From: Candidatus Saccharimonadales bacterium
GTDB taxonomy: Bacteria; Patescibacteriota; Saccharimonadia; Saccharimonadales; OMJO01
DNA length: 64,000 nucleotides
NCBI GenBank assembly: GCA_035480035.1
Contig: DATIID010000008.1
Span: 9,721 to 73,720 of the forward strand
Reading direction: 5' to 3'
The notes under the pieces were generated by a model, which ran no database searches, was not told where the DNA came from, and saw nothing but the letters and a program-made list of their open reading frames with translations. This document shows, piece after piece, positions 3,637 through 53,234 of this stretch; positions within the stretch are counted from its first letter, which is position 1; every line of letters begins with the position of its first letter. The translations under genes were made by a program, and so were the position numbers.

Positions 3637-3715
3637 AATTTATGTACCTTTCTTAATTAGTTTAACTTCTTTATTTAAACAACTACCTTAATATACCCAG
3701 GATTTGACAGTTTGT

Positions 3716-4063
3716 CTAGGCGCTCACTAGGCTATCGGGTTTATCTGGTGTGGCGACTTCAGGCAACATTAGAGTTGGGGCCTGAACGTGTTCAAGCGTA
3801 GTTTCCGGAGTCGGATGCATTAGTAATGAAACTGGGGTGGCATCAATCTGAACAGGCTCAGCATTAAGTCCAGCTTGGATCATTGCTTCTTTGCCTATAA
3901 CCCGTTTTATCATTTCACCTTGTTCGCGTGAATGAAATCTAGCTTCTGATATGTCGCGAGCTTCATCTCTATTTAGGCCTACGGCAGCAACAAAAATGGG
4001 GTCGTTTTTGGAATTTAACCCAGAAAGTTGATGCGCGTTTGGGAAACTGTTGGGATCTTTCAT
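3716..4063 (-). CDS. hypothetical protein (115 aa)
   Basis: GAAAGGAA Shine-Dalgarno and its own promoter. No recognisable domain. Confidence 0.6.
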   Translation of the reverse strand: MKDPNSFPNAHQLSGLNSKNDPIFVAAVGLNRDEARDISEARFHSREQGEMIKRVIGKEAMIQAGLNAEPVQIDATPVSLLMHPTPETTLEHVQAPTLMLPEVATPDKPDSLVSA

Positions 4064-17294: not shown

Positions 17295-18041
17295 CTAGCC
17301 CTGCCCGTCATCTGTTACGTTCCAATTATTATAACTAACACCTGGAATCGGTTCATTTGGGCGATTGTTAGCTCGAAAAGTTAGTGATATCCGATCATCA
17401 ATCACATTATCGACACGATGTTCTGGTCTTAAATCATGATACCAACTGCCGTGCAAAAAACCGCCTCTCAGAATTATCATGTCACCTGGCCCGACATACA
17501 GTTTTTTAGGTTCTTCGGTCTCATACATTCGGTGATAAATTTCAGCTTGACCGGATATGCTGGCTGACACGATTAAGCCTTGGTGTCTTTCATTATCTTT
17601 ATGCCAGGTCAGGCCGGTTTCACCCTGGTCATAACGCTGAGCCACGGCTTCATCAACTTCCCAATTTGCCAGCATCGGAAAAATACCATCTAGTGAATGA
17701 ACTAGCGATTTGGCCCTTCTAGCTAAACTAATAATGCCAATCTCGGCCTCACTATCAACATCAGTAAGTTGACTCATTTTAAGTGCGTAAGTACTGAAGT
17801 TTTGGGTGACTTCAATCCCACGCTGATTAACAAACTTTTGCCGTGCATCCAGCCATTCCACCGAGGGATTAGTTAGTCGACTATATAACTCTTGGCATTC
17901 GTCTTTAGAAATAGCGTTTGGGATGTATAAGACACCGCTGCCCTCTGGCTCTAGCTCGTCTCGAACCCTATCCAAAAACTGGGTTACTTCCAGCATAGAT
18001 TCGCCGGCCACCCGGTCTAAAAATTTACTTTCTCCAGCCAC
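17295..18041 (-). CDS. AlkB-like Fe(II)/2-oxoglutarate dioxygenase
   Basis: The HxD motif (WHKD), the distal His (PEHRV) and the RISLTFR motif match the AlkB signature (RINLTFR in E. coli). The start is uncertain: GTG at 18041 or ATG at 17996. Confidence 0.7.
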   Translation of the reverse strand: MAGESKFLDRVAGESMLEVTQFLDRVRDELEPEGSGVLYIPNAISKDECQELYSRLTNPSVEWLDARQKFVNQRGIEVTQNFSTYALKMSQLTDVDSEAEIGIISLARRAKSLVHSLDGIFPMLANWEVDEAVAQRYDQGETGLTWHKDNERHQGLIVSASISGQAEIYHRMYETEEPKKLYVGPGDMIILRGGFLHGSWYHDLRPEHRVDNVIDDRISLTFRANNRPNEPIPGVSYNNWNVTDDGQG

Positions 18042-19201: not shown

Positions 19202-19519
19202 CTAGGTTGACTCTTCCACCCTTATCAGAAAAATCCGATCTTCAAAACCACCTCGGCTAACGGCCCTCTCTTGTCGAACAGATTCCAAATGTTCACTGTT
19301 AAATCCATAAGCTACACTGATAGCGCCTATAACCTCTTGGACATCAGCTAGTTCTAACATGTTAGGATTATCTTTAAACTCCCGACTTTCTTCTTCTAGC
19401 TTATCTAATAAAGCTTGCTTATATTCATCTTTATTAAGTACCCGAGTAACAGGAGTATGGCCATCCGCTTCAATAATTTCAGGTATTCTGTCTCGAACTA
19501 ATTTGCCGTATTCTGTCAT
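19202..19519 (-). CDS. MazG-superfamily house-cleaning NTP pyrophosphohydrolase-like protein
   Basis: KLVRDRIPEII N-terminus and the E-rich helix pair LEEESREF...ELADVQEV, typical of this small MazG-like family. Its start overlaps the upstream stop (ATGA). Confidence 0.75.
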   Translation of the reverse strand: MTEYGKLVRDRIPEIIEADGHTPVTRVLNKDEYKQALLDKLEEESREFKDNPNMLELADVQEVIGAISVAYGFNSEHLESVRQERAVSRGGFEDRIFLIRVEEST

Positions 19520-20043
19520 AACAAAAAGGCTTTGCCGGTGTCGATCTCTTCTTTGACGGTGTCCATCAGCAATTTATTATTGAGCTTTAATTCTTGCCCA
19601 CCGCCGTTGATAACAATGTTTATCCATTTGTGCCCGGGATTTTCCTGCATTTCATAGGGCACTTTTTTATCATCCAAAATCAGCCGCGCGGCATCAAAAT
19701 TTGGAAACAAAAATTCGGCGTGTTCGAAACCGACGACGTCTTTGCCAGCTTTTTCAGGCCGTGGTTCCATAATCTCGACCCAACTAACTTCGCCAAAGCG
19801 ACCAATGTTGATTGAGCCATTAATCTGGACACTAGCCAACCGGCGTTTGTTCATAATAACAGATGTGATCTGGAAAGAGTGCGGCCTGAAAAGCTCAATA
19901 AGTCGGGCGAAATCGGCGCCATCCTTGCCCTTAATAGCCACGTGATCGGGCTTGTTAAACCATTCTTCAGGCAATTGATGAAGAGCCACAAACTTATTTA
20001 GCGCCCCGACATAGCTTTTGATTTGTTCTAAAAACTGCTCCAC
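19516..20043 (-). CDS. VOC-fold YecM-like protein (paralog 1)
   Basis: PDHVAIK...WVEIMEPRPEKAGKDVVGFEHAEFLFP parallels E. coli YecM (DHISLR...VELPWPGEKRYPHEGWEHIEIVLP). Confidence 0.65.
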   Translation of the reverse strand: MEQFLEQIKSYVGALNKFVALHQLPEEWFNKPDHVAIKGKDGADFARLIELFRPHSFQITSVIMNKRRLASVQINGSINIGRFGEVSWVEIMEPRPEKAGKDVVGFEHAEFLFPNFDAARLILDDKKVPYEMQENPGHKWINIVINGGGQELKLNNKLLMDTVKEEIDTGKAFLL

Positions 20044-20051
20044 ATTTCCCT

Positions 20052-20573
20052 CTAAATTCTCGTTGCCTTACGCATCGCCATTTCGTCCCAAACAATATTT
20101 TGGGTGGCTCTACTTGTCAATTTTACCTCTCGATCGTTACCAAAGCCAACCTCAATATAACTGCCAAAATCATGCTTACGTTTAGTAAACGGTATTTCTT
20201 TTTCGGTTAATTCGTCTTTGGTTTTGTCATAATCAACTCGGTAAAAGCCGACGTGATCTAAACCAATGCGATCCTGCCCCTTTGACTTTGGTTTTGGCTC
20301 TGAAATCCTCACCCAATCAATTGGGCCGAATGGCGGCAGAGCTATAGTGCCGAGCAATTCAGCTGTGGCAACCAATCGATCGTCACGTCTGACGGCGGTT
20401 ATCTCGTGTGACATCGGCCGAAATTTCTCAATTAACTTATTGAAATCATCTTCATCGGCCGCTTTTAAGGCAAGGTAATCCGGCATACGGTTGAAAACTT
20501 TTAGGCCAGTCTGGTGGCGAAAATCATTCAGTTCTTGAGCATAATCACCTAATTGTAGCTCTAGCTCTTTCAT
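20052..20573 (-). CDS. VOC-fold YecM-like protein (paralog 2; ORF track starts at the TTG at 20612)
   Basis: PDYLALK...WVRISEPKPKSKGQDRIGLDHVGFY aligns residue for residue with paralog 1. The ATG at 20573 gives the same N-terminal length. Confidence 0.65.
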   Translation of the reverse strand: MKELELQLGDYAQELNDFRHQTGLKVFNRMPDYLALKAADEDDFNKLIEKFRPMSHEITAVRRDDRLVATAELLGTIALPPFGPIDWVRISEPKPKSKGQDRIGLDHVGFYRVDYDKTKDELTEKEIPFTKRKHDFGSYIEVGFGNDREVKLTSRATQNIVWDEMAMRKATRI

Positions 20574-20618
20574 AGTTAACTCATAATAACACCTGTAAAA
20601 CCGACTAACCAAAAGCGC

Positions 20619-21185
20619 TTATTTGAAAATTTCTTCAAGTAGTTCCGGAAATTCCGGCGTTTTCATAGTACCAATTGTAAAATGGCCGTAATCGTGAAAA
20701 ATTCGGACATCCAAATTCGGTATTTCGGCTTTTAACTTTTTAAGCGAAGTCTGCATCTCTTCTTTGTCATTATCGGAGTGAAAAACAATTAAACTTTGAG
20801 TGCGTTTAACAAAGTCGGGGTCAATTTTAAAGTCAAAGAAATCTTTATCGCTTCTTTCGACATCAATCCAGGGAGCTACCAGCACAACTTTGCCAACCTT
20901 TAGTTTGGGATGTTCACTGAGATAGCGTACCCAGAAACCGCCGCCGCAACTGTGCCCTACTAAAATGGTTTCGGGCCCAATTTCAAACCGCTCGACTTCT
21001 TTAACCCACTCTTTCCAAACCGGTTGAAACGAAAACGGCACTTCGGGCGTAACCGCTGCAATGTCATGTTTAAGTAATTGGCTTTGTAGCCATGGCAGCC
21101 AGTGTGAGTTGCTCATACTCGGCCGATCCGGGTTGTAATATTCGGCTTTGCTTGGCCGCCCATGTAAAATAATCGCGTTTTTCAT
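20619..21185 (-). CDS. alpha/beta serine hydrolase, YdeN/RBBP9-like
   Basis: ILHGRP...WLPWL...LVGHSCGGGF nucleophile elbow, with the C-terminal His in HDYGHF. Confidence 0.75.
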   Translation of the reverse strand: MKNAIILHGRPSKAEYYNPDRPSMSNSHWLPWLQSQLLKHDIAAVTPEVPFSFQPVWKEWVKEVERFEIGPETILVGHSCGGGFWVRYLSEHPKLKVGKVVLVAPWIDVERSDKDFFDFKIDPDFVKRTQSLIVFHSDNDKEEMQTSLKKLKAEIPNLDVRIFHDYGHFTIGTMKTPEFPELLEEIFK

Positions 21186-21195
21186 TTCGCATTCA

Positions 21196-21771
21196 TCATA
21201 GCACTCTAATAATCTTATGGCGTGATAATAAAACTACAGTAAATATAAGATTTATGACGATTAAATATAAGGGGCTTGCTATAGCTGTAATTCTTGTACT
21301 AGTTGCTGCAAAAGACGCAAACACTGCACCTAGACCGGATAACGCAAATGTAATCCATGTTTCTTCATATGGTCTTTGCCAGGCATGTTTTAGTGTTGGC
21401 ATTGAGCCGATTAAGTCGATTGTTATACTAGCTAGCACAGCAATGGCTGGTGAGTTGAAAATGAACCACAAAATTAGACCAACTATTGCACCAAATTGAC
21501 ATGCAATATCAAACAACGCAAATTCTTTATTGCCGTATTTCAGACCCAAAATCACAACTGCTAGGCACTCAACGCTAGCTGATAAAGACAAAATTCCAGC
21601 TGCATATTGATGATCGCTTAAAGATGCTGCAGCTGAAATTCCACCTAATAAAGCCCAAGTAAACCACGAAACCACACGCGGTTTCGTCTTTCTTTTCAAA
21701 ATATCAACAATGTAAGGTAAAGTGGCCGAAATAGTAATAATACTACTGAGAATAATTAGAATTTGTCTCAT
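21196..21771 (-). CDS. polytopic membrane protein (about 6 TM), unknown function
   Basis: Hydrophobicity pattern only. The N-terminal LPYIVDILKRK is faintly PQ-loop-like. Confidence 0.6.
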   Translation of the reverse strand: MRQILIILSSIITISATLPYIVDILKRKTKPRVVSWFTWALLGGISAAASLSDHQYAAGILSLSASVECLAVVILGLKYGNKEFALFDIACQFGAIVGLILWFIFNSPAIAVLASITIDLIGSMPTLKHAWQRPYEETWITFALSGLGAVFASFAATSTRITAIASPLYLIVINLIFTVVLLSRHKIIRVL

Positions 21772-37746: not shown

Positions 37747-38463
37747 GTGAAAAAAGTCTATATTTTCGTCGCGCTGGTAGTCATTCTAATCTTTGCGGTT
37801 GGCTGGCGGGCGTACGCGCCGGGCTCATCAAATAGTTCAATTTTTGGCAATAAATCCAAATCTACCAAAACTACTACCAAAAAAATTTCACCGTCATTCA
37901 ATAAGAATAAACATTCGATTAGCGACCCTAGGAGTATCTGGATAGTTGTTAACAAACAGCGACCACTTAAACCAATTGATTACACACCGCTTGATTTAAC
38001 ACCGGTTGGCAACGGTCAACTTATGCGTAAAGAAGCGGCGGCGGCATTAGCTAATCTGATTGCGGCGGCGGCTGGACAAGGCTTAAAAATTACGGCGGAT
38101 AGCGGCTATCGGTCTTATGCCATTCAGGTAAGCGTTTATAACAATGAGGTTAGGCAGCACGGTCAGGCTGTGGCCGACAGCGAGAGTGCCAAACCAGGTT
38201 ATAGCGAACATCAGACCGGTTTCGCCGTTGATGTCGGGGGTGGTGGTTGCAACATCGAGGATTGTTTCGCCAATACCAAAGAGGGTAAATGGGTTGCTGA
38301 GCATGCCTATGAATACGGTTTTATCCTGCGCTACACGGCTGACAAACAATCAGTGACTGGCTACCGTTACGAACCCTGGCACATCCGTTATGTTGGCACC
38401 GAATTGTCCACTGAGATGAACAATGATGGCATCACTACGCTAGAGGAATTCTTCGGGCTTTAA
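37747..38463 (+). CDS. D-alanyl-D-alanine carboxypeptidase, M15B/VanY family
   Basis: SGYRSY...SEHQTGFAVDV...EPWHIRYVG zinc-binding and catalytic motifs. N-terminal TM anchor. Confidence 0.9.
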   Translation: MKKVYIFVALVVILIFAVGWRAYAPGSSNSSIFGNKSKSTKTTTKKISPSFNKNKHSISDPRSIWIVVNKQRPLKPIDYTPLDLTPVGNGQLMRKEAAAALANLIAAAAGQGLKITADSGYRSYAIQVSVYNNEVRQHGQAVADSESAKPGYSEHQTGFAVDVGGGGCNIEDCFANTKEGKWVAEHAYEYGFILRYTADKQSVTGYRYEPWHIRYVGTELSTEMNNDGITTLEEFFGL

Positions 38464-39047
38464 GCCTTACTGCGAGCGGCTGACAGCGCGTTTGAATACC
38501 AAGTTAGCTCATCAAGCAAATGCTCAATCGTGACATGTGGTCCATGTTCCTGACTAGTGATTGTTTTGCTCAAGTTTCCATCGTCATCAAAATTCTCACT
38601 GACTCGGTGAGTAAAAGCTATATTTGTCGAGATAGCCATACCTCTGACTTCAGAAATAATGTGCTTCAAATGCCCAGCTGCCCTGGCTCCACCGGCACCA
38701 CCGTGACTAACAATCGCGAATGGCTTTTTTTGAACTTGCCAGTCTAGATAGTCAAAGGCGTTTTTAAGAACTCCGGGAATCGAGTGGTTATACTCAGGTG
38801 TAACCACAATATAAGCATCCTGGTCCTGTAGTTTGTCCAGCCACTTTTTGGGGACACCGCTGAGGTTGCGGTTCGGATTAAACTTAGGTGAAATCGGTTC
38901 ATTGAAAAACGGTAACGGATATTCTCTGAGATCCAAATATTCTACTTCAAGGTCCTGGCGCTGTCTAGCAGTCTTAACGACCCACTCAGCCAGCCTTTCA
39001 GTTGCTCGGCCTTCTCGTATAGAACCTAAAATTATGCCTACTTTCAT
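38460..39047 (-). CDS. NAD(P)H-dependent FMN reductase family oxidoreductase
   Basis: MKVGIILGSIREGR...VVTPEYNHSIPGVLKNAFDYL. AGGAGA Shine-Dalgarno before the ATG at 39047. The ORF track starts at 39101. Confidence 0.85.
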   Translation of the reverse strand: MKVGIILGSIREGRATERLAEWVVKTARQRQDLEVEYLDLREYPLPFFNEPISPKFNPNRNLSGVPKKWLDKLQDQDAYIVVTPEYNHSIPGVLKNAFDYLDWQVQKKPFAIVSHGGAGGARAAGHLKHIISEVRGMAISTNIAFTHRVSENFDDDGNLSKTITSQEHGPHVTIEHLLDELTWYSNALSAARSKA

Positions 39048-39071
39048 ATTTTCTCCTAATCTTTTTGATGG

Positions 39072-39117
39072 TATACTTTGTATAGTATTGATAATACGCA
39101 CAATACTATACTTTGTA
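39072..39117. promoter_or_regulatory. probable HxlR operator: a 10-bp perfect inverted repeat flanked by an 11-bp direct repeat
   Basis: TATAGTATTG (39081..39090), then N10, then CAATACTATA (39101..39110). TATACTTTGTA occurs at 39072..39082 and again at 39107..39117. Located between the divergent FMN reductase and hxlR-like genes. Confidence 0.55.
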
Positions 39118-42719: not shown

Positions 42720-43346
42720 ATGCAAATACTGGATTCGATTCGTGATCTGGTCCGATCAGTTATGAAAAGCCTGGCTAAGGCTTTGAATAGTTTAACGGGT
42801 GGCAGTTTAAGCCCCAACACCGTAACGATTGTCGGGTTGTTGGCTCATTTACCGATTGCCTACTTGATAGCGACCCGGCATAATCTGCGAGCCGCTGTTC
42901 TATTGGTCATTTTTGGATTGTTTGATACTTTGGACGGCGAACTGGCACGTCTTCAGAAGCGTGATAGCGCTGCCGGCATGCTACTAGACGCCACGACTGA
43001 TCGATTCAAAGAAGTCATGCTCTACACTGGTGCCGCCTACGCCATTGCTGGCAGCGGTCGACCATTGATGGCCGGTTGGGCAGTGGTAGCTTGCGGGGCT
43101 AGCCTGTGCGTCAGTTACGTTAAGGCTAAGGGTGAAACCGCAGTTGCTAAAAGTCATTTGAGCGTTAGCGAAATCAACCGACTGTTTGCTGATGGCTTAA
43201 TGCGCTTTGAAGTGCGGATGACCATTTTGGTCATCGGCCTACTTAGTAATCGCATTATTTTAGCTATCGTAGTAATCGCTGTGTTTTCATCGCTCACTGC
43301 AATTAATCGCCTGGTAAATATAAGCACCAAGCTCAAAGATGTTTAA
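42720..43346 (+). CDS. CDP-alcohol phosphatidyltransferase family protein
   Basis: Complete D-x2-DG-x2-AR-x8-G-x3-D-x3-D motif (DTLDGELARLQKRDSAAGMLLDATTD). Multi-TM. Confidence 0.9.
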   Translation: MQILDSIRDLVRSVMKSLAKALNSLTGGSLSPNTVTIVGLLAHLPIAYLIATRHNLRAAVLLVIFGLFDTLDGELARLQKRDSAAGMLLDATTDRFKEVMLYTGAAYAIAGSGRPLMAGWAVVACGASLCVSYVKAKGETAVAKSHLSVSEINRLFADGLMRFEVRMTILVIGLLSNRIILAIVVIAVFSSLTAINRLVNISTKLKDV

Positions 43347-43992
43347 AGTCGACTTGCACACTCACTCCACGGCTTCGCCGGACGGTGGTATTTCAATTGA
43401 TCATTATCAAAAAGCGATTGACGAAAAATTACTCGATGTGGTCGCCATAACTGATCATAACCAGATAGAATTTGCGTTAAAGATTAAGAAACTACTGGGC
43501 GACCACGCGATTGTCGGTGAAGAAATTATGACAACCGAAGGTGAAATTATCGGCCTTTTCTTAAGTCAAATCATCCCGCCTGGCCTTAGCCCTCAGGAAA
43601 CAGTTCAGCAGATTAAGGCTCAAAAAGGCTTAGTTTATATTCCTCACCCATTCGAAACAATACGCCATGGTTTGCATCCGGAAATTATTGAAAGTTTAGT
43701 CGAGCAGATTGATATAATCGAAATTTATAATGGTCGGGCCTTCGCTCAAGACCGTAGTTCGCAAGCTGTGGTTTTTGCTAAACTCAACCAATTAATCGGC
43801 GTGGCCAGCAGTGACGCTCATGGTTATTTGGGTCTGGGCAAGACTTATACAGGGGTCAGCCATATGCCTGACAATGTTAATTTGCTTGAGCTCTTATCAA
43901 GTGGTACGCCAATTGTTAGCAACCCTGGTCTCCGCGAACTACTTTATCCAAAGTTTCATCGTCTAAGAAAAAGGATTAAAAAAGACAGATGA
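43339..43992 (+). CDS. PHP-domain metal-dependent phosphoesterase
   Basis: DLHTHS, ITDHN, GEEI, IPHPF and SSDAHG, the full set of PHP metal ligands. It overlaps the upstream stop by 8 nt. Confidence 0.85.
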   Translation: MFKVDLHTHSTASPDGGISIDHYQKAIDEKLLDVVAITDHNQIEFALKIKKLLGDHAIVGEEIMTTEGEIIGLFLSQIIPPGLSPQETVQQIKAQKGLVYIPHPFETIRHGLHPEIIESLVEQIDIIEIYNGRAFAQDRSSQAVVFAKLNQLIGVASSDAHGYLGLGKTYTGVSHMPDNVNLLELLSSGTPIVSNPGLRELLYPKFHRLRKRIKKDR

Positions 43993-44531
43993 ATAGTCTA
44001 TGGTCAGACATATTTTGGGCGTTTTGGTTTTTCTTGCCAGCCGGGGTGGCCAACATGACACCACCAATCGCAAACAAAATTCCCTTATTAGCCAAGTGGA
44101 ATACACCGATGGATTTTGGTAGATCATTTCGCGGCAAACGCATTTTTGGCGACAACAAACGGTGGCGCGGGCTAGTTTTCGGCACGCTCATGGCAGGTTT
44201 GGTCGGTGGTTTTGAATACTCGTACTTAGTGGCACTCGATGCCGGCCATTTAATCGCTACCTTCGTACTTTTAGGCATATTAATGGGGCTGGGTGCATTA
44301 ACAGGCGATGCTATCGCTAGCTTTTTTAAACGACAACTTAAGATTGATTCCGGTAAAAGCTGGTTCCCGTTTGATCAAACCGATTATATTATCGGTGGCA
44401 TTTTGTTTAGTTATCCGGTATTCCACTACACCGTCCGACAAATGGTACTTATTCTAAGTATTTATTTTGGCCTACATCTGTTAATTGCCTATATCGGCTA
44501 TTTGCTAAAGTTCAAAGACCGTCCGATTTAA
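43989..44531 (+). CDS. CDP-archaeol synthase (CarS, DUF46) family membrane cytidylyltransferase homolog
   Basis: TPMDFGRSFRGKRIFGDNKRWRG and GDAIASFFKRQL follow the CarS/DUF46 pattern, with about 5 TM helices. ATGA overlap with the PHP gene. Confidence 0.75.
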   Translation: MNSLWSDIFWAFWFFLPAGVANMTPPIANKIPLLAKWNTPMDFGRSFRGKRIFGDNKRWRGLVFGTLMAGLVGGFEYSYLVALDAGHLIATFVLLGILMGLGALTGDAIASFFKRQLKIDSGKSWFPFDQTDYIIGGILFSYPVFHYTVRQMVLILSIYFGLHLLIAYIGYLLKFKDRPI

Positions 44532-44974
44532 CAAATTTGCTTAGCTGGATGCTCGACGTAGCTTGGAACACCTTCTTCACTGCAAGCTTCGCTTAAGCGA
44601 GCGCCGTCAAAAGTTAGAACCAAGCTATTAGGATCATTTGGATCTTTTTGGCATTCCATCTCGCCCAGTTTGTTAACGCTGTCATCATTGTACAAATCAG
44701 GACTGGAATGATCGCGAATACCTAAACCTCTAGCGGCAAGTTTTTGATATTCCAGCAATTTGTAGGGATCGGTAGCAGATCGATAGTTAGGGCTAGAAGG
44801 ATCCGTGGTAACAGTGATGTCGCTGGCTAAACCATTACAAACCGTAACTTTGTTACCGCGACCACTACCAAAAGTAGTACAAGCCGTGGCGCCTAAACTC
44901 AAAAGGCCAACCATTGTCAACGCTTTGACTTTTTTCGCTACATTAGGGTTATCACTAAAAATTTCTGAATGCAT
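44528..44974 (-). CDS. probable secreted protein or lipoprotein (148 aa)
   Basis: GAGGTG Shine-Dalgarno. The signal-like segment ends in LGATAC, a possible lipobox. Four further Cys residues. Confidence 0.55.
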   Translation of the reverse strand: MHSEIFSDNPNVAKKVKALTMVGLLSLGATACTTFGSGRGNKVTVCNGLASDITVTTDPSSPNYRSATDPYKLLEYQKLAARGLGIRDHSSPDLYNDDSVNKLGEMECQKDPNDPNSLVLTFDGARLSEACSEEGVPSYVEHPAKQIC

Positions 44975-45027
44975 AACACCTCAGTTATAAAGTTTATTAT
45001 ATACTATCTGCACTCTTTTTTCAATGA

Positions 45028-45759
45028 TTATTTTGATTCGGCTTTCACAAAACACTCTAGGCACAACATTGATTTCAGCATGTCGTCTGGCGTGTTTTTA
45101 ATCATGGCTTCAGTCTGTGACGGCATGGCTTTTAGGGCTTGGTATTTTTGGTCAATTACCCGCTCTGGCAAATCATAGGCAATATCACAATCTTTGGCCT
45201 TGCGGGTTGGTGGTTTGTCGATATTGAAGTAAATATCAAATTTCTTGTCGGCTTCGATCATGTATTTTTGGTAATGGTCTTCTTCTTCGATAGTGTGGTA
45301 CACCTTGATATCTTTGCCTTCTGTCGCTAAGTCCACCCATTTAGAGACAGTTTGGTGATCAGTATGGCCGGTAATGCCGTCTGGCCCAAAAGTCAATATG
45401 CTGTCGGGCTGATATTTTTCAATTAAGTCTTTGATTTTGGCGACAGCTTCCCTGGTCTGCACACAATTACATAAACCATCTTGGTAATTTAGCCAGTAAT
45501 GATCTGTAATACCAATCTTCTTCAAAGCAGCTTGCATTTCTTTAGCGCGAATTTCGCCAAGTTTGGCGGCTGGCCAACGGCTTTCGTCCTGCACGCCAGC
45601 CTCGCCTTTAGTGGCTGTGATACAGACAACCTGTTGGCCATTTTTAACAGCAGTGGCCATGATACCGGCCGATGTGAATGATTCGTCGTCCGGATGAGCC
45701 CAGACCGACATAATTGTGCCCAATTGTTTAATGTCGTCTGGCGAGGTAATGCGGGCCAT
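45028..45759 (-). CDS. PIG-L/LmbE family N-acetylglucosaminyl deacetylase
   Basis: VWAHPDDESF and GHTDH motifs. Confidence 0.85.
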   Translation of the reverse strand: MARITSPDDIKQLGTIMSVWAHPDDESFTSAGIMATAVKNGQQVVCITATKGEAGVQDESRWPAAKLGEIRAKEMQAALKKIGITDHYWLNYQDGLCNCVQTREAVAKIKDLIEKYQPDSILTFGPDGITGHTDHQTVSKWVDLATEGKDIKVYHTIEEEDHYQKYMIEADKKFDIYFNIDKPPTRKAKDCDIAYDLPERVIDQKYQALKAMPSQTEAMIKNTPDDMLKSMLCLECFVKAESK

Positions 45760-45762
45760 GAT

Positions 45763-46326
45763 CTAGCCAGCCTTCCGCCCTACCAATGCTAAAAATTTAG
45801 TTTGGAGTGTGGCCGATTCTGGTACATCAACGGGTTTGCCAAACAGTCCGCTTTTGGCAAACCGGTCTTTTCGTGGCAAGACATAATCGTACATGGTCTT
45901 TAATACTTCAGGTTCAAAAATCAGATTGCAATTAATACTTTGCCCAACGTCCCAACCATGAATCATCATGTCGCGAGCCATTTCATCGATATAGTCAAAC
46001 ATTGACACATCGCCATAAGACAAATGGGCAGTTGCTTTGGAATCAGCTTTTTCAACTGCCGCTAAAGCATTATGACTAGCCCGGTCCCAAGCGGCTTGAA
46101 TATCTTTGCCAAGTAAATCGCCGTCAAAACGGTCGCCAACTTCTTTTACAGTTTTACCTTCAGCAATTTCTGGTAGCCACATCAGTTCATAAACCATATG
46201 GCCAACCAGATCGTGCAAGTTCCAATCAGTGCACGGCGTGTCATTAGTTAATTGGTCGTCTTGCACCAGCCGAACGCAATGTTCGGCCTGTGATAATGAG
46301 TGACGAAATAACTCTTTGGGGTCCAT
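45763..46326 (-). CDS. DinB-fold, mycothiol-dependent maleylpyruvate-isomerase-N-terminal-domain family protein (TIGR03086-like)
   Basis: TPCTDWNLHDLVGHMV signature. Size and C-terminal pattern fit the actinobacterial TIGR03083/03086 group as I recall it. Confidence 0.7.
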   Translation of the reverse strand: MDPKELFRHSLSQAEHCVRLVQDDQLTNDTPCTDWNLHDLVGHMVYELMWLPEIAEGKTVKEVGDRFDGDLLGKDIQAAWDRASHNALAAVEKADSKATAHLSYGDVSMFDYIDEMARDMMIHGWDVGQSINCNLIFEPEVLKTMYDYVLPRKDRFAKSGLFGKPVDVPESATLQTKFLALVGRKAG

Positions 46327-46385: not shown

Positions 46386-47417
46386 TTAGTTGTTAAGTTC
46401 TTTTTTGAATTTCTCAACCAGTTCGACTGGTGTTGGGTCAACGTTTTCGAGTAGCCCTAAGTAAATACTGGTAAAGTCACCGAGTACCGAAGTCCACAAG
46501 ACTTGTTCAAGTGGCGTTTTGCCCTCGGCATTCACCACTTCCGGATCAGGCCGTAGGCCAGATAGCATCCGTCCGGTTATGTCGAATCGCTTGGCAACAC
46601 GCGGATTATCGAGGCTGCTTCTTAGGTCAACTGTGCAATACGGCTTATCGAGCGGTTGTGAGCTCCAGCCGATGAACTCATTGTGGCTGATCTCTGGGAA
46701 TTGATTCCACCAAGCAATGTGCTTGGCATTTTCGTTAATACAAATTTTCCACTTCAATGCTACTGGGGCTAACAGTGGACCGGCGTAAACGACCACACTT
46801 TTAGCGACCATTTCCCTGGCCAGTTGCTTGGCTTGATTTTTGGAAGAGGGTACCGTCGCCAGCCAGTTTTTGATTTCGCCGCTTAGCCAATGGCCGGCTT
46901 CAATTAAAATTGATTGGCTGTTATGCGGAATCAAGCCCAATCGTTCGAACAATTGAATATAAGCTGCTAAGAAATAAAATGTCGCCATTCTGGGCTGTGA
47001 AGCTGCGGGTATAACAAATAAGGCATGGCTGTGTTTCTTGGCTAATTCGCTTAATTTGCCGCCATTACTCATCACCGTAATCTGGGCACCACGTTTCTCG
47101 GCTTCAGCTAGAGCGGCTAGAGTTTCTTCGGTATTACCAGAGTAGCTGGAGGCAATGAACAAGGTATTTGGACCGACGTATTTTGGCAGTTCGTAATTGC
47201 TGACTACTTCAAATGGCAAACTTAGCCCAGGCCAACTTTTTAGATATAAAGCTGGCCAGCCAGAACCGCCCATGCCACCGACAACAATATTGCTGATATC
47301 GTCCTTTTGTTCAAAAACTGCATCAAAATTATGATTCAGCTGAGCTGGTTGTTTTTCAGCAACACCCAAAGCGTCGCTGAGGTCGTGGTTGTGGATGTAT
47401 TTTAAATCGTCTAGCAA
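46386..47417 (-). CDS. bifunctional phosphoglucose/phosphomannose isomerase (SIS, archaeal/CPR type)
   Basis: Two SIS-like halves and SYSGNTEET. TTG start with a GGAGGG Shine-Dalgarno. Confidence 0.85.
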   Translation of the reverse strand: MLDDLKYIHNHDLSDALGVAEKQPAQLNHNFDAVFEQKDDISNIVVGGMGGSGWPALYLKSWPGLSLPFEVVSNYELPKYVGPNTLFIASSYSGNTEETLAALAEAEKRGAQITVMSNGGKLSELAKKHSHALFVIPAASQPRMATFYFLAAYIQLFERLGLIPHNSQSILIEAGHWLSGEIKNWLATVPSSKNQAKQLAREMVAKSVVVYAGPLLAPVALKWKICINENAKHIAWWNQFPEISHNEFIGWSSQPLDKPYCTVDLRSSLDNPRVAKRFDITGRMLSGLRPDPEVVNAEGKTPLEQVLWTSVLGDFTSIYLGLLENVDPTPVELVEKFKKELNN

Positions 47418-47499: not shown

Positions 47500-47973
47500 A
47501 TGTTTGGCAAAGATGATGATAGCCAAGACCAGCCGGCTACCCAAGATTCGGTGCAGCCTTCATTTGGGCAAACCATAACAATGCCGGCACCAACAACCGA
47601 TAATTCTGCCGCCACCGACGAAGTTGCAACCAGTCCAACAGTGCCTGCAGACGATAACAATGAAAATGTAACGACGGAGGACAATGTGGCAGACGACGCT
47701 TCAAAAGCCGCTGCAGCCAGTGGCAATGATGATTTACTAAAGATTAAACAATCGGCTCTTCAAAACCTAGCACCGCTAGTTGGCCAATTAGATCAAACCC
47801 CTGAAGAAAAATTTAAAACAACCATGATGATGATTCAGGCTGGTGATGACGCCACGCTAATTCAGACGGCTTACGATACGGCTAATCAAATTACCGACGA
47901 AAAAATCCGGGCTCAAGCCTTACTCGATATTGTCAACGAGATCAATTACTTCACTCAGCAGCACAACAGCTAG
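47500..47973 (+). CDS. hypothetical acidic protein with a disordered N-terminal half (157 aa)
   Basis: AGGGGG Shine-Dalgarno. C-terminal helical domain (EEKFKTTMMMIQAGDD...RAQALLDIVNEINYF). Confidence 0.6.
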   Translation: MFGKDDDSQDQPATQDSVQPSFGQTITMPAPTTDNSAATDEVATSPTVPADDNNENVTTEDNVADDASKAAAASGNDDLLKIKQSALQNLAPLVGQLDQTPEEKFKTTMMMIQAGDDATLIQTAYDTANQITDEKIRAQALLDIVNEINYFTQQHNS

Positions 47974-47977
47974 TTAG

Positions 47978-48409
47978 CTAGTCGTTGCCTTGAGGACCGG
48001 TGTCAACCAGACTTGGATTAGTGGTAGTGATTGGAGCTGGAGTAGGTTTTGGTTTGGGAGTTGGTTTAGTTGTGTTAGCCGCTTGCTGACTGACTTGGCC
48101 GTTATTAGAATTCGATGGTTCACTTGTGTCACTTGTAGAGTTGCTTGAATTACTTGCGGAAGATTGGGTCTCGGTCTTAGTTTGATTTTTGGTTGCGACT
48201 TGCGGAGTTTGATTTTTCTTATGATGTGAGCGGTAGATACCTCGACCACCAAAGAACGCACCCAGAGCCACACCAACGGTAATAACTAAAGTAGCAAAAG
48301 CTAGCAGCCAGGCAATGCCAACCCGTTCACGATGCTCGGCTTGATAATATTGATGCACCTCTGGCGGCATGCCAGTTTCATCGACTTCATTGTTTTGTAA
48401 TGGTGACAT
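47978..48409 (-). CDS. membrane-anchored hypothetical protein with a Ser/Thr/Asn/Pro-rich ectodomain (143 aa)
   Basis: Promoter and Shine-Dalgarno upstream. One TM helix. Confidence 0.55.
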   Translation of the reverse strand: MSPLQNNEVDETGMPPEVHQYYQAEHRERVGIAWLLAFATLVITVGVALGAFFGGRGIYRSHHKKNQTPQVATKNQTKTETQSSASNSSNSTSDTSEPSNSNNGQVSQQAANTTKPTPKPKPTPAPITTTNPSLVDTGPQGND

Positions 48410-48471: not shown

Positions 48472-48485
48472 GCTTACAAACCATG

Positions 48486-48908
48486 TTAACCTTCGGGTAG
48501 AGCGTCAAACTTTAAGTTTAGCTGATCGGTAACTCCACATATCTCAAGGGTACGTTTTAAAGTTGGATCTAGATTTCTAACGCTAAAATCGACGCCCATA
48601 CTTTTACATAAATTAGTTGTGTCTAAGAGCAGTTTTACAGTTCGGCTATCAACAAAAGTTAGTGCACAAGCTTCGAGCTCAAGGCTGTCGCCAGGCTGAC
48701 TATAAAGATGGAATCGATCGAGATAGTGGCTTAACGTTTGAGCTGACTCCAAATTTAATGCACCATAAACCATAAAAGTCGTCCGGTCTGGTTCGACTGA
48801 AATAAACAGTTCGGAATCTTCCCGACTCTCTGTTAAAGCTATAGATTCATTTGGCCCAGTCGATCTGAGTGGACTATCTTCAAAATTTTCACCAAATTCT
48901 GTCATCAA
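48486..48908 (-). CDS. STAS-domain protein (anti-sigma-factor-antagonist-like)
   Basis: The C-terminal 100 aa show the SpoIIAA/STAS pattern (LELEACALTFVDSRTVKLLLD...LKRTLEICGV). No partner kinase or phosphatase is nearby. Confidence 0.6.
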   Translation of the reverse strand: MMTEFGENFEDSPLRSTGPNESIALTESREDSELFISVEPDRTTFMVYGALNLESAQTLSHYLDRFHLYSQPGDSLELEACALTFVDSRTVKLLLDTTNLCKSMGVDFSVRNLDPTLKRTLEICGVTDQLNLKFDALPEG

Positions 48909-48954
48909 GCAAATAATACAACAATATTAAAATTTTGCAAGGTGTGCTAGAGTA

Positions 48955-49863
48955 GTGATGATTACTATGTCAGAAACTTTAGATCAATCGGCGTTCGCCG
49001 ACGAACTTAGACCAGCAGTAGAAAGATTGTACGATAGACATCTAGAAGTTGCCCGCCCATGGTCAGCTTACGATGTTATTGATTGGAGCCAAGCTGAAGG
49101 GTTTGGCGACAAGCCTTGGTCACCAAGTGACTATCCCTTAAATGAAGCTGCGCGAAGTTCTGTTGTTGTCAATCTATTAACTGAAGACAATGCTCCTTAT
49201 TACACCCATCTTATAAAGTCCGTAACCCCCAAAGACCATCCTCTCCAAACCTGGAATAATCAGTGGACGATGGAAGAAGGACAACACTCATACGCTATTA
49301 GAACATGGGCGCATTTATCACGAGCCGTTGATCCTGACGAATTGGAAGCTGGACGCAGAACTCAAATGGCAGGAGGTGTCGTCCCCCAACCTGAAACATT
49401 AGCCGATATGCTTGCTTACGTGCCCTTCCAAGAGAAAGCTACTCAAATAGCCCACAGTAACACTGGTAGCCATCTTCCTAGAGAAGATAAAACCGGTCGA
49501 AAGGTATTGGCATTGGTGGCGGGTGATGAAACGAAACACTACAATTTTTACCGCGATGTGGCAGGCTCAGCTATAGAAGTAGATCCTTCGGCTATGGTAA
49601 TCGCTATCTCCAGTCAAGTCAGGGGTTTCGCTATGCCCGGTACTGGCATCCCGGGATTCAAAGAGCATGCCGATAAAATTGCCAAGGCTGGCATTTACAA
49701 CTTGAGCCATTTCAAAGAAAAAGTTGTCGAACCGACCCTTGAAGCTTGGGACATAAAAAATGTCGAGGGGCTGAACGATGAAGCTGAAGTTGCGCGCGAT
49801 AAATTATTTGCGTTTGTCGAAAAAGTAGGCAGAGTTGCCACTCGACTGGGCCATACGTCTTAA
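48955..49863 (+). CDS. soluble acyl-ACP desaturase family di-iron protein (DesA-like)
   Basis: LLTEDNAPYY, MEEGQH (ExxH) and GDETKHYNFY (ExxH), the di-iron ligand pattern of PF03405. The start could instead be the ATG at 48958 or 48967. Confidence 0.85.
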   Translation: MMITMSETLDQSAFADELRPAVERLYDRHLEVARPWSAYDVIDWSQAEGFGDKPWSPSDYPLNEAARSSVVVNLLTEDNAPYYTHLIKSVTPKDHPLQTWNNQWTMEEGQHSYAIRTWAHLSRAVDPDELEAGRRTQMAGGVVPQPETLADMLAYVPFQEKATQIAHSNTGSHLPREDKTGRKVLALVAGDETKHYNFYRDVAGSAIEVDPSAMVIAISSQVRGFAMPGTGIPGFKEHADKIAKAGIYNLSHFKEKVVEPTLEAWDIKNVEGLNDEAEVARDKLFAFVEKVGRVATRLGHTS

Positions 49864-49945
49864 AAACTAGTAGTAGTTGAACATTTGACAATATGCCAAT
49901 TTGCTAAGGCAGTGCTAAACTAGAATTCAAACGTGGAGGGTAACC

Positions 49946-50998
49946 ATGGACAATCAGCCTACCCTTTGGGGTAATGAAAACGCTGAAGATTTCAGACGAT
50001 CACTCGAATTACAAAACTTTGGGCTGATCAGGCATGGGCTTAGCTTGGACGAAATTGACGAAGCTGCTGCTGCTTACGCAAACTTTACCGATAATTTACC
50101 TGATCCACCGCTAGAACTCGTCGAAGCCATGATACCTAGAGGAGATGATCCAAAAGTAGTTGGTGATCTTCTCGATAATCTTGACTACGATCAAGACGAT
50201 CCCGATAAATATGAGTGGCACAAATACCGTACCAACTACCCGGAATTTGCCAAACCTGGTGGATATACTAATCGTTCTCTGCAAACCGAGGCACTATACA
50301 AAGTTCGTGGTATTACAGTAATAGATGACCCAAAGGAGTTTTACCATTTTCACCCAACTAGTACAGTTAGCATGAATGAGATCCACCGAGAGCGCGGCTG
50401 GGGATCATTACCGCCCGAAGTTGACCAGTTACACGCTAAGTTAATGCGTATTCACAACGCCGGTGCTGACGCAACTCGATTTGCTTATCAAGCACTTGAG
50501 GACACTCACCCAGAAATTCTACCCAAACACTTCGGCCCTAAAGATGTCCATAGCAGTCCGCTGAGGGTTTTACTTTATCATCGCGATCTGAGCGAGCCGC
50601 TCTTAAGCACCAAAAAAGATGATCAACCGCTAGCCGGAGCGCATACCGACAAAGCCGCTTTTACTATCCAGGTCGCTGAAAGCCACCTAGGGCTATGGCT
50701 CAACGATGAAAGCCAGTTTATTGATCGTGAACCTGAATTTGCCGTAGGATTTGCCGGCAAAACTTTAAACCGCCCTAGTGCTTACCCTGAAAGCACAGTT
50801 AACCCAGGTTGGCACGGTGTTAAAAACAAACCAGAAGCTTCACGCGGTCGTCAGCTCCATGGTCAAAATGCAGCTCGAACAGCCATAATATTTTTTGCTA
50901 ATTCTTTGTTAGCCGGTACGGTTTTGGATAAAGCTGAAACTCATACTAGGCCCGATGAATTAGTTGATAACCTTTTGCCTGACGAAGCTGTCGCTTAA
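49946..50998 (+). CDS. 2OG-Fe(II) oxygenase superfamily protein (IPNS-like core)
   Basis: AHTDKAAFTIQ...GLWL (HxD), then GWHGV (distal His), then RTAIIFF (Arg). GGAGGG Shine-Dalgarno. Confidence 0.6.
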   Translation: MDNQPTLWGNENAEDFRRSLELQNFGLIRHGLSLDEIDEAAAAYANFTDNLPDPPLELVEAMIPRGDDPKVVGDLLDNLDYDQDDPDKYEWHKYRTNYPEFAKPGGYTNRSLQTEALYKVRGITVIDDPKEFYHFHPTSTVSMNEIHRERGWGSLPPEVDQLHAKLMRIHNAGADATRFAYQALEDTHPEILPKHFGPKDVHSSPLRVLLYHRDLSEPLLSTKKDDQPLAGAHTDKAAFTIQVAESHLGLWLNDESQFIDREPEFAVGFAGKTLNRPSAYPESTVNPGWHGVKNKPEASRGRQLHGQNAARTAIIFFANSLLAGTVLDKAETHTRPDELVDNLLPDEAVA

Positions 50999-50999
50999 T

Positions 51000-51200
51000 C
51001 TAGGAGCTGCTGCCGATTAAACGGCCAAGCTGCTTAGCGGTTTGTTCACGACGTAGATATTCATCCAGCTCAACGATTTCGTAGCTAGAAAAATGTCTTC
51101 GCGTTTCCAGTGAACCGTCTGACGGCATTACCAAACTTACATTTTCGTTCGAAGGAGCCAATTCATCAATTGGCTTTTGGTCTTGTTCAAATTCACCCAT
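51000..51200 (-). CDS. hypothetical small protein (66 aa), weakly supported
   Basis: ORF only, downstream of groEL. No Shine-Dalgarno or promoter recognised. Confidence 0.3.
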   Translation of the reverse strand: MGEFEQDQKPIDELAPSNENVSLVMPSDGSLETRRHFSSYEIVELDEYLRREQTAKQLGRLIGSSS

Positions 51201-51238
51201 GTTTATGCTTACGTTTAATATTTTGTATATTACACCGA

Positions 51239-52885
51239 CTACATGCCCATGTCCATGCCGCCCATGCCACCACCTGGCATAGCCGAACTAGAAGCTTTTT
51301 CAGGTACATCAACTACCAACGCACCCATAGTCATCGAAGTACCGGCAATTGAGACGGCATTTTGAATTGCTTCACGCGTTACCCGCACTGGGTCAACAAT
51401 ACCATTGGCTTTAAGGTCGACTAATTTGGTTGGGTTAGTAACATCGATGCCGTGACCGATTTTAGCCTTCTTAACTTGGGGTAACCACTCATCGGCATTC
51501 TCACCAGAGTTTTCCATTAAAATTCGAAACGGTTGTTCTAGAGCCTTTTGCAGTAGAGTACCGCCAGTCGAGAGTGAATCTTGGCCTTTTAGCTTAAGGT
51601 TGGCTAAGTTGACTAGTGTCACCCCGCCACCCGGTACAATACCTTCATCGAGAGCAGCTTTAACGGCCGCCACCGCGTCATCAACACGGAATTTCTTCTC
51701 TTCAATTTCAGTTTCGGTGGCTCCACCAACTTTAATTACTGCAACTTTGCCATTCAGAGCAGCTCGTCGCTTCTCCAGATTTTCGCGGTCATATTCGCTA
51801 GATGCGGCGTCGATTTGAGCATTGATTTGCTTAACTCGGGCGGCCACAGCTGAAGCTTTACCACCACCTTCAATAATGGTGGTTTCGTCTTTGTTGACAA
51901 TTACCTTTCGAGCACTACCTATCGCATCTAGGTCGGCTTCTTCAAAACTAGCACCAGTGTCTTCGCTGATAACGATTCCGCCTGTCAAAATAGCAATATC
52001 TTCCAATATTTCTTTGCGTCGGTCGCCAAAAGCTGGAGCTTTGATGGCAATGGTATTAAATACGCCTTTCAGACGGTTCAAAATAAGTGTACCTAGAGCT
52101 TCCCCGTCAACGTCTTCAGCAATTAACACCAAATCCTTTTTACCAGCTTGGGCTAATTTTTCCAATATTGGTAAAAACTCTTGCACCGAACTTATTTTTT
52201 TGTCGGTGATTAATATGGCAGGTTTGTTGTAAACTGCTTCCATACGAGTAGTGTCAGTCACCATGTATGGGCTGACAAAGCCACGATCAAAAGTAAAGCC
52301 TTCGACAACTTCACTTTCCATAAGGAGGCCTTGGCCTTCTTCGACTGTGACTACGCCTTCTTTGCCAACTTTATCGATAACATCAGCGATTAAATCGCCA
52401 ATTTCCTTATCACCAGCTGAAATGGTGGCTACTTCAGCGACTCGCTTTTTGTTGCTCTTAATGTCTTCACTCATGCCCGACAGTTTGGCAATCACATCTG
52501 CAGCGGCCGTTTCCAAACCCTTACGCAACTGTATTGGGTCGTGGCCAGCAGCGATCAATTTATTGGCTTCGTTCAAAATGTGGTAGGTCAAAACTGTGAC
52601 AGTAGTGGTACCATCGCCAGCGACGTCGTTCATTTTGTTAGCGGCTTGTTTGATCAGTTCAGCACCGACGCTATAGCCAAGTGTTTCGTCATCAACGTCT
52701 TCAATTTCAACGCCTTTGGCCACCGTTACGCCGTCGTGAGTAATCGTTGGTGAACCATAACTCTTGCTGATAATAGCGTTGCGGCCCTTTGGACCCATAG
52801 TCGTTTTAACAGCATCATATAAAATTTGCGCCCCACCCAAAACCCGCTTGCGGGCATCATCATCATAAAAAACTTTTTTAGCCAT
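51239..52885 (-). CDS. groL: chaperonin GroEL
   Basis: Full-length Cpn60 with a GGM-rich C-terminus. Confidence 0.98.
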   Translation of the reverse strand: MAKKVFYDDDARKRVLGGAQILYDAVKTTMGPKGRNAIISKSYGSPTITHDGVTVAKGVEIEDVDDETLGYSVGAELIKQAANKMNDVAGDGTTTVTVLTYHILNEANKLIAAGHDPIQLRKGLETAAADVIAKLSGMSEDIKSNKKRVAEVATISAGDKEIGDLIADVIDKVGKEGVVTVEEGQGLLMESEVVEGFTFDRGFVSPYMVTDTTRMEAVYNKPAILITDKKISSVQEFLPILEKLAQAGKKDLVLIAEDVDGEALGTLILNRLKGVFNTIAIKAPAFGDRRKEILEDIAILTGGIVISEDTGASFEEADLDAIGSARKVIVNKDETTIIEGGGKASAVAARVKQINAQIDAASSEYDRENLEKRRAALNGKVAVIKVGGATETEIEEKKFRVDDAVAAVKAALDEGIVPGGGVTLVNLANLKLKGQDSLSTGGTLLQKALEQPFRILMENSGENADEWLPQVKKAKIGHGIDVTNPTKLVDLKANGIVDPVRVTREAIQNAVSIAGTSMTMGALVVDVPEKASSSAMPGGGMGGMDMGM

Positions 52886-52904: not shown

Positions 52905-53168
52905 TCAGACCACTTTGAAATAAACTTCTTCTTCTTTCATGTAAACATATTCGGCATTGTCGATTTTGACTGGTGACGAATAGTTGGAATAGAAGATTTG
53001 ATCGCGTACTTTGACCTCTTTAACGTCTTTGCCAACCGCTACAACCTCAGCCATTTTGACATCTTCTTTGGCTGACTCAGGCAGATAAAAACCGCTGGCA
53101 GTTTTGGCTGTTGATTCAATTTTTTTGGCGACAATTTTATCACCAAAGGCACTTATTTTCTTGGCCAT
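52905..53168 (-). CDS. groS: co-chaperonin GroES
   Basis: Cpn10 pattern. I prefer the ATG at 53168 (MAKKISAFGDKIV) with GGAGG upstream. The ORF track starts at 53195. Confidence 0.95.
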   Translation of the reverse strand: MAKKISAFGDKIVAKKIESTAKTASGFYLPESAKEDVKMAEVVAVGKDVKEVKVRDQIFYSNYSSPVKIDNAEYVYMKEEEVYFKVV

Positions 53169-53234
53169 TGTTTCCTCCGAATTTAACTTTCCCAAGTAAG
53201 CGAATTAATGGTCCTCGCAACTACCATCAATCCA

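Follow-up and report, generated by a model that had tools for sequence, protein, structure and literature searches.

A predicted acyl-ACP-type desaturase and a native 2OG-Fe(II) oxygenase of Saccharibacteria: neighbouring genes probably brought together by an old insertion

Introduction

Soluble desaturases of the PF03405 family act on an acyl chain held on acyl carrier protein (ACP), and with two electrons from ferredoxin and O2 at a di-iron site they introduce a cis double bond into this chain. The closest described enzymes are those of plant plastids (viz. the castor delta-9 18:0-ACP desaturase, 1afr/1oq4, and the ivy delta-4 desaturase, 2uw1) and, from the bacterial/actinobacterial branch of the family, DesA2 of M. 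tuberculosis (1za0). This report concerns a gene for a protein of this family (DES, open reading frame (ORF) 48955..49863) and the gene following it (OX, ORF 49946..50998), whose product belongs with the 2-oxoglutarate (2OG)-Fe(II) oxygenases related to isopenicillin N synthase (IPNS), in a 64-kb stretch of DNA (referred to below as the window) from Candidatus Saccharimonadales bacterium. An earlier note on this DNA had treated these genes as a pair lying within a single accessory block. The comparisons described here lead to a different reading, to which we assign a probability of about 0.6, viz. that these are two independent genes which became adjacent by an accident of insertion, OX being native to this site and DES an anciently acquired, competent desaturase that likely acts on scavenged acyl chains.

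The desaturase and the oxygenase compared with their closest described relatives

The two genes and the spacer between them are as follows; the loci of relatives are denoted by L and a three-digit number and homologous proteins by P and a four-digit number.

48955..49863, + strand: DES, soluble di-iron acyl-ACP-type desaturase, 302 amino acids (aa) from a GTG start codon; PF03405
49864..49945, + strand: DES-OX spacer, 82 nt, with a GGAGGG ribosome-binding site at 49935-49940
49946..50998, + strand: OX, divergent 2OG-Fe(II) oxygenase of the IPNS/T7H type (T7H, thymine-7-hydroxylase), 350 aa; assigned by AlphaFold2 fold and HxD...H motif

Both proteins have a 100% identical database entry (MAG TPA, Candidatus Saccharimonadales bacterium; MAG, metagenome-assembled genome), and DES is annotated by NCBI as 298 aa, which implies an ATG start at 48967, four codons later. 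The earlier assignment of DES to the soluble acyl-ACP-type desaturases, along with its coordinates, was correct. It matches PF03405 (FA_desaturase_2) with an E-value of 7.9e-53 and 179.8 bits (cut-off 22.7), residues 16-298 covering positions 7-307 of the 325 in the profile, and the motifs TEDN, EEGQH, FQEKAT and DETKH are found at positions 76, 107, 158 and 191, respectively; TEDN, EEGQH and DETKH are those quoted earlier. All six di-iron ligands (E77, E108, H111, E160, E192 and H195) are present, the set E77, E108/H111, E160 and E192/H195 is unchanged across 24 aligned homologues, and in pairwise alignments the ligand motifs of the castor and ivy enzymes align with the ligands of DES. Further, the AlphaFold2 model of DES (pLDDT 86.2, pTM 0.87) matches the helical-bundle fold of solved desaturases, superposing in Foldseek on the castor (1oq4, 1afr), ivy (2uw1) and Thunbergia desaturases with TM scores of 0.78-0.80 over ~320 columns. 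With no ligand lost in this alignment and the fold matched, the di-iron site is intact, as had been supposed, and sequence and model together predict that DES, a soluble di-iron desaturase of the acyl-ACP family, is competent for catalysis.

In a search of PDB sequences, the solved structure closest to DES is that of M. tuberculosis DesA2 (E 1.4e-21, ~22% identity; Foldseek TM 0.83, target-normalised), whereas the plant acyl-ACP desaturases match at E ~1e-16. The plant enzymes share with DES the PF03405 domain, the six ligands and the fold, but their identity to it is only ~20%, and DES has a shorter N-terminus, EEGQH and FQEKAT in place of EENRH and FQERAT, and a host which, unlike theirs, probably lacks the type II fatty-acid synthesis system (FAS II). 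However, the nearest real relatives of DES are not mycobacterial but of the Acidimicrobiales type (viz. P0081, P0083 and P0090), which are ~300-310 aa long, show 53-58% full-length identity to DES and share all of its ligands. These proteins are likely the donor group of DES, and they differ from it in that they are found in genomes of 60-70% GC, are solitary beside genes of lipid metabolism, and carry the motifs NLPYY, EENRH and FQERAT.

The sequence of OX by itself showed no match in Pfam (E <= 0.01), NCBIfam or PDB, and its homologues number 53 among 5.8 billion proteins, every named one being a 'hypothetical protein'. Its description as an IPNS-like 2OG oxygenase is nevertheless well founded on invariant residues and on its fold. 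In an alignment of 28 sequences H233-x-D235, H290 and R311 are invariant, as are Y211, which may be the usual Tyr partner, E245-S-H247 and the N-terminal motifs KPGGYTNRS and DDPKEFYHF. When the AlphaFold2 model (pLDDT 89.6, pTM 0.88) was compared with PDB structures by Foldseek, there were 171 matches at E <= 1e-3, and all 50 that were listed are 2OG-Fe(II) oxygenases of the IPNS/DAOCS/T7H/plant-DOXC type. These alignments, which include T7H (5c3r, E 9e-10), 3on7, 3oox and IPNS, extend over 315-380 columns with TM ~0.5; because they span the whole protein, the N-terminal half of OX, earlier described as long and unrecognised, corresponds to the N-terminal domain that is usual for the IPNS-type fold. 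The OX family profile also finds 3on7 (E 5.6e-4) and T7H (E 0.017) in PDB, and in the profile alignment H233 and D235 fall on the HTD of T7H, H290 on VHRV, and R311 on the Arg of RYS. Thus, OX shares the N-terminal domain and jelly-roll of T7H (5c3p-5c3s), SO_2589 (3on7), CC_0200 (3oox), IPNS and DAOCS, but its identity to the IPNS-like/DOXC enzymes is only 11-18%, it has Ala at the Ser position of the expected R-x-S (R-T-A in OX; consensus R-W-A), and its two invariant N-terminal motifs set this family apart from them. It is most likely a 2OG-dependent, hydroxylase-type enzyme acting on a small-molecule substrate.

The distribution of the OX family is narrow. A profile search of 1.84 billion representative sequences gave 32 close members and a halo of ~170 shorter relatives, and some of the distant relatives show sub-threshold matches to PF03171 (E 2e-4) and PF14226 (E 3e-3) or are labelled 'isopenicillin N synthase-like dioxygenase' by JGI. 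When 185,579 species, each represented by one genome, were scanned with the OX alignment, 15 loci were identified, 13 of them in MAGs titled Saccharibacteria or Saccharimonadales and two in entries titled just 'bacterium', and the OX family is restricted to Saccharibacteria. The only consistent neighbour of OX is groESL, in 5 of the 15 genomes. The gene context of one distant relative (P0216) was uninformative, and another, P0324, carries a long region of pentapeptide repeats fused at its C-terminal end (468 aa; PF00805, E 2.5e-30).

Gene order and the insertion of the desaturase

The genes that surround DES and OX in the window are the following.

46386..47417, - strand: PGI/PMI, backbone gene; PF10432, E 4e-41
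47500..47973, + strand: o47500, backbone gene
47978..48409, - strand: o47978, small low-complexity protein, backbone gene; left edge of the variable site
48486..48908, - strand: orphan STAS-domain gene, resembling anti-sigma antagonists, PF13466 and PF01740 (E ~6e-7), part of the variable insert
51239..52885, - strand: groEL, backbone gene; right edge of the site
52905..53195, - strand: groES, backbone gene, with a Cpn10 Pfam match

If DES and OX functioned together, then the two genes should be found in proximity in other genomes, and the earlier note had named a lack of such linkage as a refutation. At none of the 15 OX loci did tblastn detect DES or the STAS gene at a distance of 10 kb or less from OX, and OX is absent from all five of the other DES loci of the Saccharibacterial clade (L016, L017, L018, L019 and L060). 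DES genes of this clade occur at no fewer than three different loci, none of which other than the window has OX. There is thus no conserved linkage, and the claim of a co-occurring pair is not upheld.

The gene order in related genomes indicates which of the two genes is the older resident. The backbone PGI-o47500-(o47978)-OX-groEL-groES is common to the window and five relatives (L001, L003, L004, L006 and L011), and DES is absent from the equivalent site in every one of these five. The groEL gene directly follows OX in the relatives, or DES in L016, and its product is 74-87% identical to that of the window in L001, L003, L006, L011 and L016 and 66% identical over a partial copy in L004. In L001 and L006 a homologue of o47978 lies just upstream of OX, and L016 has one upstream of its DES region; between o47978 and OX, where the STAS gene and DES stand in the window, L001 and L006 have only ~200 nt. 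Because these five loci share the backbone order without DES, OX is a native backbone gene beside groESL, ancestrally situated between the gene for a small membrane protein and groEL, and the DES and STAS genes are an insertion into this syntenic backbone. The o47978 protein, which from its sequence is read as membrane-anchored, is rich in Thr, Ser, Pro and Asn, and its weak PHROG matches (a Zot-like toxin, E 1.8e-4) are probably due to composition only.

The closest relative of the window, L016, shows a different arrangement. In this case, groEL is 87% and PGI 76% identical to their counterparts in the window and the PGI-o47500 gene order is also kept, but immediately after the 67%-identical DES, which occupies the same site, comes groEL, OX being missing from between them (3696..3763), and the position of the STAS gene is taken by an unrelated 134-aa ORF (2335..2739) lacking Pfam and PHROG matches. 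When the DNA of the window is aligned with that of L016, the homology is interrupted exactly around the STAS gene (48472-49009) and OX (49807-51244). Since L016 has another ORF in place of the STAS gene and has no OX, the stretch from o47978 to groEL is a hotspot at which genes turn over. In the simplest history, OX would be ancestral at this site, DES would have entered it in a common ancestor of the window and L016, and OX would later have been lost in L016.

The STAS gene is divergent from DES across a 46-nt gap, finds no homologue but itself in 5.8 billion proteins, has a low GC content at third codon positions (GC3; z -2.2), and gives no PHROG match. The possibility that this gene was transferred together with DES was rejected, as it is an orphan, is absent from the Acidimicrobiales-type DES loci and is replaced by another gene in L016. 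A mobile-element origin of the insert was likewise rejected on account of the lack of a PHROG match for the STAS gene and because the flanks show no notable direct or inverted repeats, no nearby tRNA, and no integrase or transposase. The description of the region from 44.5 to 51 kb as one accessory block also needs to be corrected: PGI, o47500, o47978, OX and groESL are backbone genes, into which two separate insertions have been made, one consisting of the STAS gene and DES and the other of the LmbE and DinB genes described below.

Origin of the desaturase

The DES of the window forms a Saccharibacterial clade with P0055/L016, P0060, P0056/L019, P0058/L017, P0061/L018 and P0057, which has 100% bootstrap support in the neighbour-joining (NJ) tree, and within it a sub-clade of the window protein, P0055 and P0060 is supported at 90.5%. 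The identity among the members of this clade is only 57-67%. Their contigs have a GC content of 43-48%, and the genes neighbouring DES on them (viz. a sortase, a cation-efflux gene and a paralogue of the window ORF 21196..21771) resemble those of Saccharibacterial loci. The last of these, at 7928..8491 of L017, is 41% identical to the window ORF, which is itself part of a run of ORFs of similar size (175-191 aa) at 19516..21771. A scan of JGI metagenomes with peptide patterns specific for the clade returned 80 loci, of which only L060, a partial eighth sequence that is syntenic with L017 (DUF2207 and pheT), belongs to the clade. L017 and L018 are from the assemblies GCA_038317375.1 and GCA_039738695.1, respectively.

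The other close homologues of DES show 52-59% identity to it and are mostly found on contigs of 60-70% GC. The named ones are mostly from Acidimicrobiales, with a few labelled Acidobacteria, and the actinobacterial affinity ascribed to DES in the earlier note is therefore supported by its nearest named outgroups. The two groups are also distinguished by sequence signatures, viz. NAPYY, EEGQH and FQEKAT within the clade versus NLPYY, EENRH and FQERAT outside it. In two genomes, the donor-type DES is solitary, being located beside genes for an MMPL protein and a GDSL lipase in one of them and beside a carboxyltransferase and an acyl-AMP ligase (AMP-binding) in the other. The GC content of the window DES (0.465) and its GC3 (0.393) equal the window mean, and the window (GC ~0.44-0.46) shows no compositional break at the DES/OX site. 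Because its composition has become that of its surroundings, the transfer is an old one, and a recent transfer was rejected based on the ameliorated GC and GC3 together with the depth of the clade. The existence of a single clade, its high-GC relatives and the ameliorated composition together indicate that the gene was transferred once, long ago, from a donor of the actinobacterial type and has since been kept by selection for a long time. These sequence comparisons thus indicate that DES was apparently acquired long ago by a Saccharibacterial ancestor from a high-GC, Acidimicrobiia-like actinobacterial lineage.

Lipid context and the proposed role of the desaturase

The known hosts of cultured Saccharibacteria are Actinobacteria. 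An actinobacterial host parasitised by TM7x accumulates saturated fatty acids (PMC10939385). Soil Saccharibacteria are reported to have no fatty-acid synthesis, apparently to scavenge lipids, and possibly to respire O2 (PMC6031116), and bacteria of the candidate phyla radiation (CPR), although lacking lipid synthesis, have ordinary membranes (PMC7242380). Patescibacteria are often without fatty-acid synthesis and the machinery for processing ACP (PMC7242380, PMC12455944), but acpP has been transferred into Patescibacteria and is carried by some of them (PMC12455944). The present organism probably cannot make its own fatty acids, and the observation made earlier that a desaturase of the ACP type is odd in such a setting agrees with these reports on its lineage (PMC6031116, PMC7242380, PMC12455944).

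Because Saccharibacteria are reported to scavenge host lipids in place of synthesising fatty acids, DES likely acts on scavenged chains. In the mechanism that we propose, scavenged saturated acyl chains would first be loaded onto a carrier, canonically ACP, by an acyl-ACP synthetase or a route of the Fak/PlsX type. DES, supplied with two electrons by a small redox protein, would then use O2 to place a cis double bond in such a chain, and the epibiont could in this manner tune the fluidity of its own membrane in oxic soil. The acyl carrier, the electron donor, the position of the double bond and the physiological role of DES are inferences.

Evaluation of the proposed reading and of the alternatives to it

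A number of points weigh against the reading that a native OX and an anciently acquired, competent DES acting on scavenged chains are adjacent by an accident of insertion. The phylogeny of DES is a distance-based NJ tree of the top 120 homologues with no true outgroup, and hence the donor that it identifies is approximate. The placement of L017-L019 in Saccharibacteria is based on the tblastx likeness of neighbouring genes and on GC content, and not on marker genes. The clade has changes in the second shell beside the ligands (viz. EEGQH for EENRH and FQEKAT for FQERAT). Across the 82-nt spacer, transcription may read through from DES into OX. Lastly, a Pfam scan of all 78 non-overlapping window ORFs of at least 60 aa found no gene for ACP, AcpS, a ketoacyl synthase, FabA/Z/G/I/D, PlsX/Y/C, Fak, an acyl-ACP synthetase, a ferredoxin or a flavodoxin in the 64-kb window, which also confirms the remark that no fatty-acid synthesis genes are present in it.

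The alternative that survives best, although we consider it unlikely, is that DES is active but independent of ACP, using acyl-CoA, acyl-phosphate, a free fatty acid or a lysolipid in a host-dependent cell without FAS II. To our knowledge, no PF03405 member uses a non-ACP substrate, and we count this against it. The clade has, however, a signature of its own beside the ligands, and from the sequence the EEGQH and FQEKAT changes might mark a switch to a non-ACP carrier. The absence of an ACP gene from the window and the frequent lack of fatty-acid synthesis and ACP processing in Patescibacteria (PMC7242380, PMC12455944) are also in its favour, whereas the presence of acpP in some Patescibacteria (PMC12455944) argues in the opposite direction. 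We likewise offer only as a tentative, rather doubtful proposal that a small clade of soil Saccharibacteria has long kept a working DES for editing stolen acyl chains, either by a minimal ACP salvage without FAS II or by means of a non-ACP carrier.

A further alternative is that DES resembles DesA2 and, as the earlier note had raised, lacks catalytic activity, or is degenerate, having a structural or regulatory role or being just a relic. The second-shell substitutions of the clade, the lack of an ACP or ferredoxin gene in the window, and the identity of the best sequence match in PDB, which is DesA2 itself, can all be cited for this view. However, the match to DesA2 should not be interpreted as showing that DES shares its atypical site. 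At the position of the first ligand DesA2 has Lys (K-D-N), whereas DES has Glu (E77-D-N) and so keeps to the canonical ligands; because of this difference, DES is closer to the catalytic enzymes than to the atypical DesA2. Further, the six ligands have stayed invariant throughout a clade whose members have diverged to 57-67% identity, and the DES model fits the catalytic plant enzymes over its full length. A loss of catalysis is therefore quite improbable.

The two enzymes both depend on O2, as the earlier note had stated and as follows from their families, and one could suppose that they work together as an O2-dependent pair, or as an operon, in which a single lipid substrate is, for instance, first desaturated and then hydroxylated. 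OX does start exactly 82 nt past the stop codon of DES on the same strand, as had been read, and a consensus scan of the spacer revealed no terminator-like or promoter-like site. However, the spacer provides OX with a strong ribosome-binding site of its own, OX is syntenic with groEL in genomes that lack DES, and L016 retains DES at the same site without OX. In view of these observations, and of the absence of linkage at all other loci, a functional pair is very improbable. The suggestion that DES is an artefact of assembly or binning, in which actinobacterial DNA was joined to a Saccharibacterial contig, could appeal to the actinobacterial type of its nearest non-CPR relatives, but it can practically be dismissed, as Saccharibacterial syntenic genes are present on both flanks in a 181,602-bp contig with the locus tag VLF39_04065 (the entry of the 100% identical protein), the same arrangement is found in the independent assembly L016, and the GC and GC3 of DES are those of the window and not of the 60-75% GC donor-type contigs.

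Other features of the window

A second insertion (44528..46326) lies between the CarS-like gene described below and PGI. It consists of a 148-aa protein of no recognised family (44528..44974), an LmbE/PIG-L deacetylase (45028..45759), whose best matches are BshB2, Mca and MshB although it does not reach their cut-offs, and a DinB/MDMPI protein (45763..46326; TIGR03086, 106 bits versus a cut-off of 83). The syntenic locus L006 has only ~820 nt where the window has this insertion, and the LmbE and DinB genes look like a separate insertion of a pair of the thiol-metabolism type. Next to it is a conserved cluster of three genes for lipid head groups (42720..44531), syntenic in L006, which encodes a CDP-alcohol phosphatidyltransferase, a PHP-domain protein and a CarS-like/CdsA-like cytidylyltransferase. 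The CarS-like gene matches PF01864, the CDP-archaeol synthase family, with an E-value of 3e-32 and CTP_transf_1 more weakly, and an archaeal-type CarS-like enzyme in a lipid-scavenging bacterium may merit a look of its own. The window also contains an NADPH-dependent FMN reductase (38460..39101) and a second 2OG-Fe(II) oxygenase, which is AlkB-like (17295..18041, - strand; PF13532, E 1.3e-12). The presence of this AlkB-like oxygenase together with PCMT, Fpg, MsrB, the FMN reductase and an HxlR regulator fits a lifestyle exposed to O2.

Implications

In the literature library searched, an acyl-ACP desaturase is paired with Patescibacteria in no paper, and those matches for Saccharibacteria and desaturase that were examined were irrelevant. 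DES adds an unusual host lineage to a known family, and OX stands apart among the IPNS-like 2OG oxygenases, being unannotated and confined to a single lineage. No new kind of system is represented by either gene, and the pairing, as reported, carries no functional information. However, if DES is active, then some Saccharibacteria would remodel host lipids with O2 and not use them unchanged. This has a bearing on membrane building in ultra-small epibionts, on how they adapt to oxic soil, and on the flow of genes from actinobacterial-type donors to the parasite. With DES it can also be asked, in a concrete way, whether the handling of acyl chains by ACP persists where FAS II is lacking. As a horizontal transfer that is old and has been retained, it makes a tidy example, and what it implies for the lipid biology of CPR bacteria can be tested.

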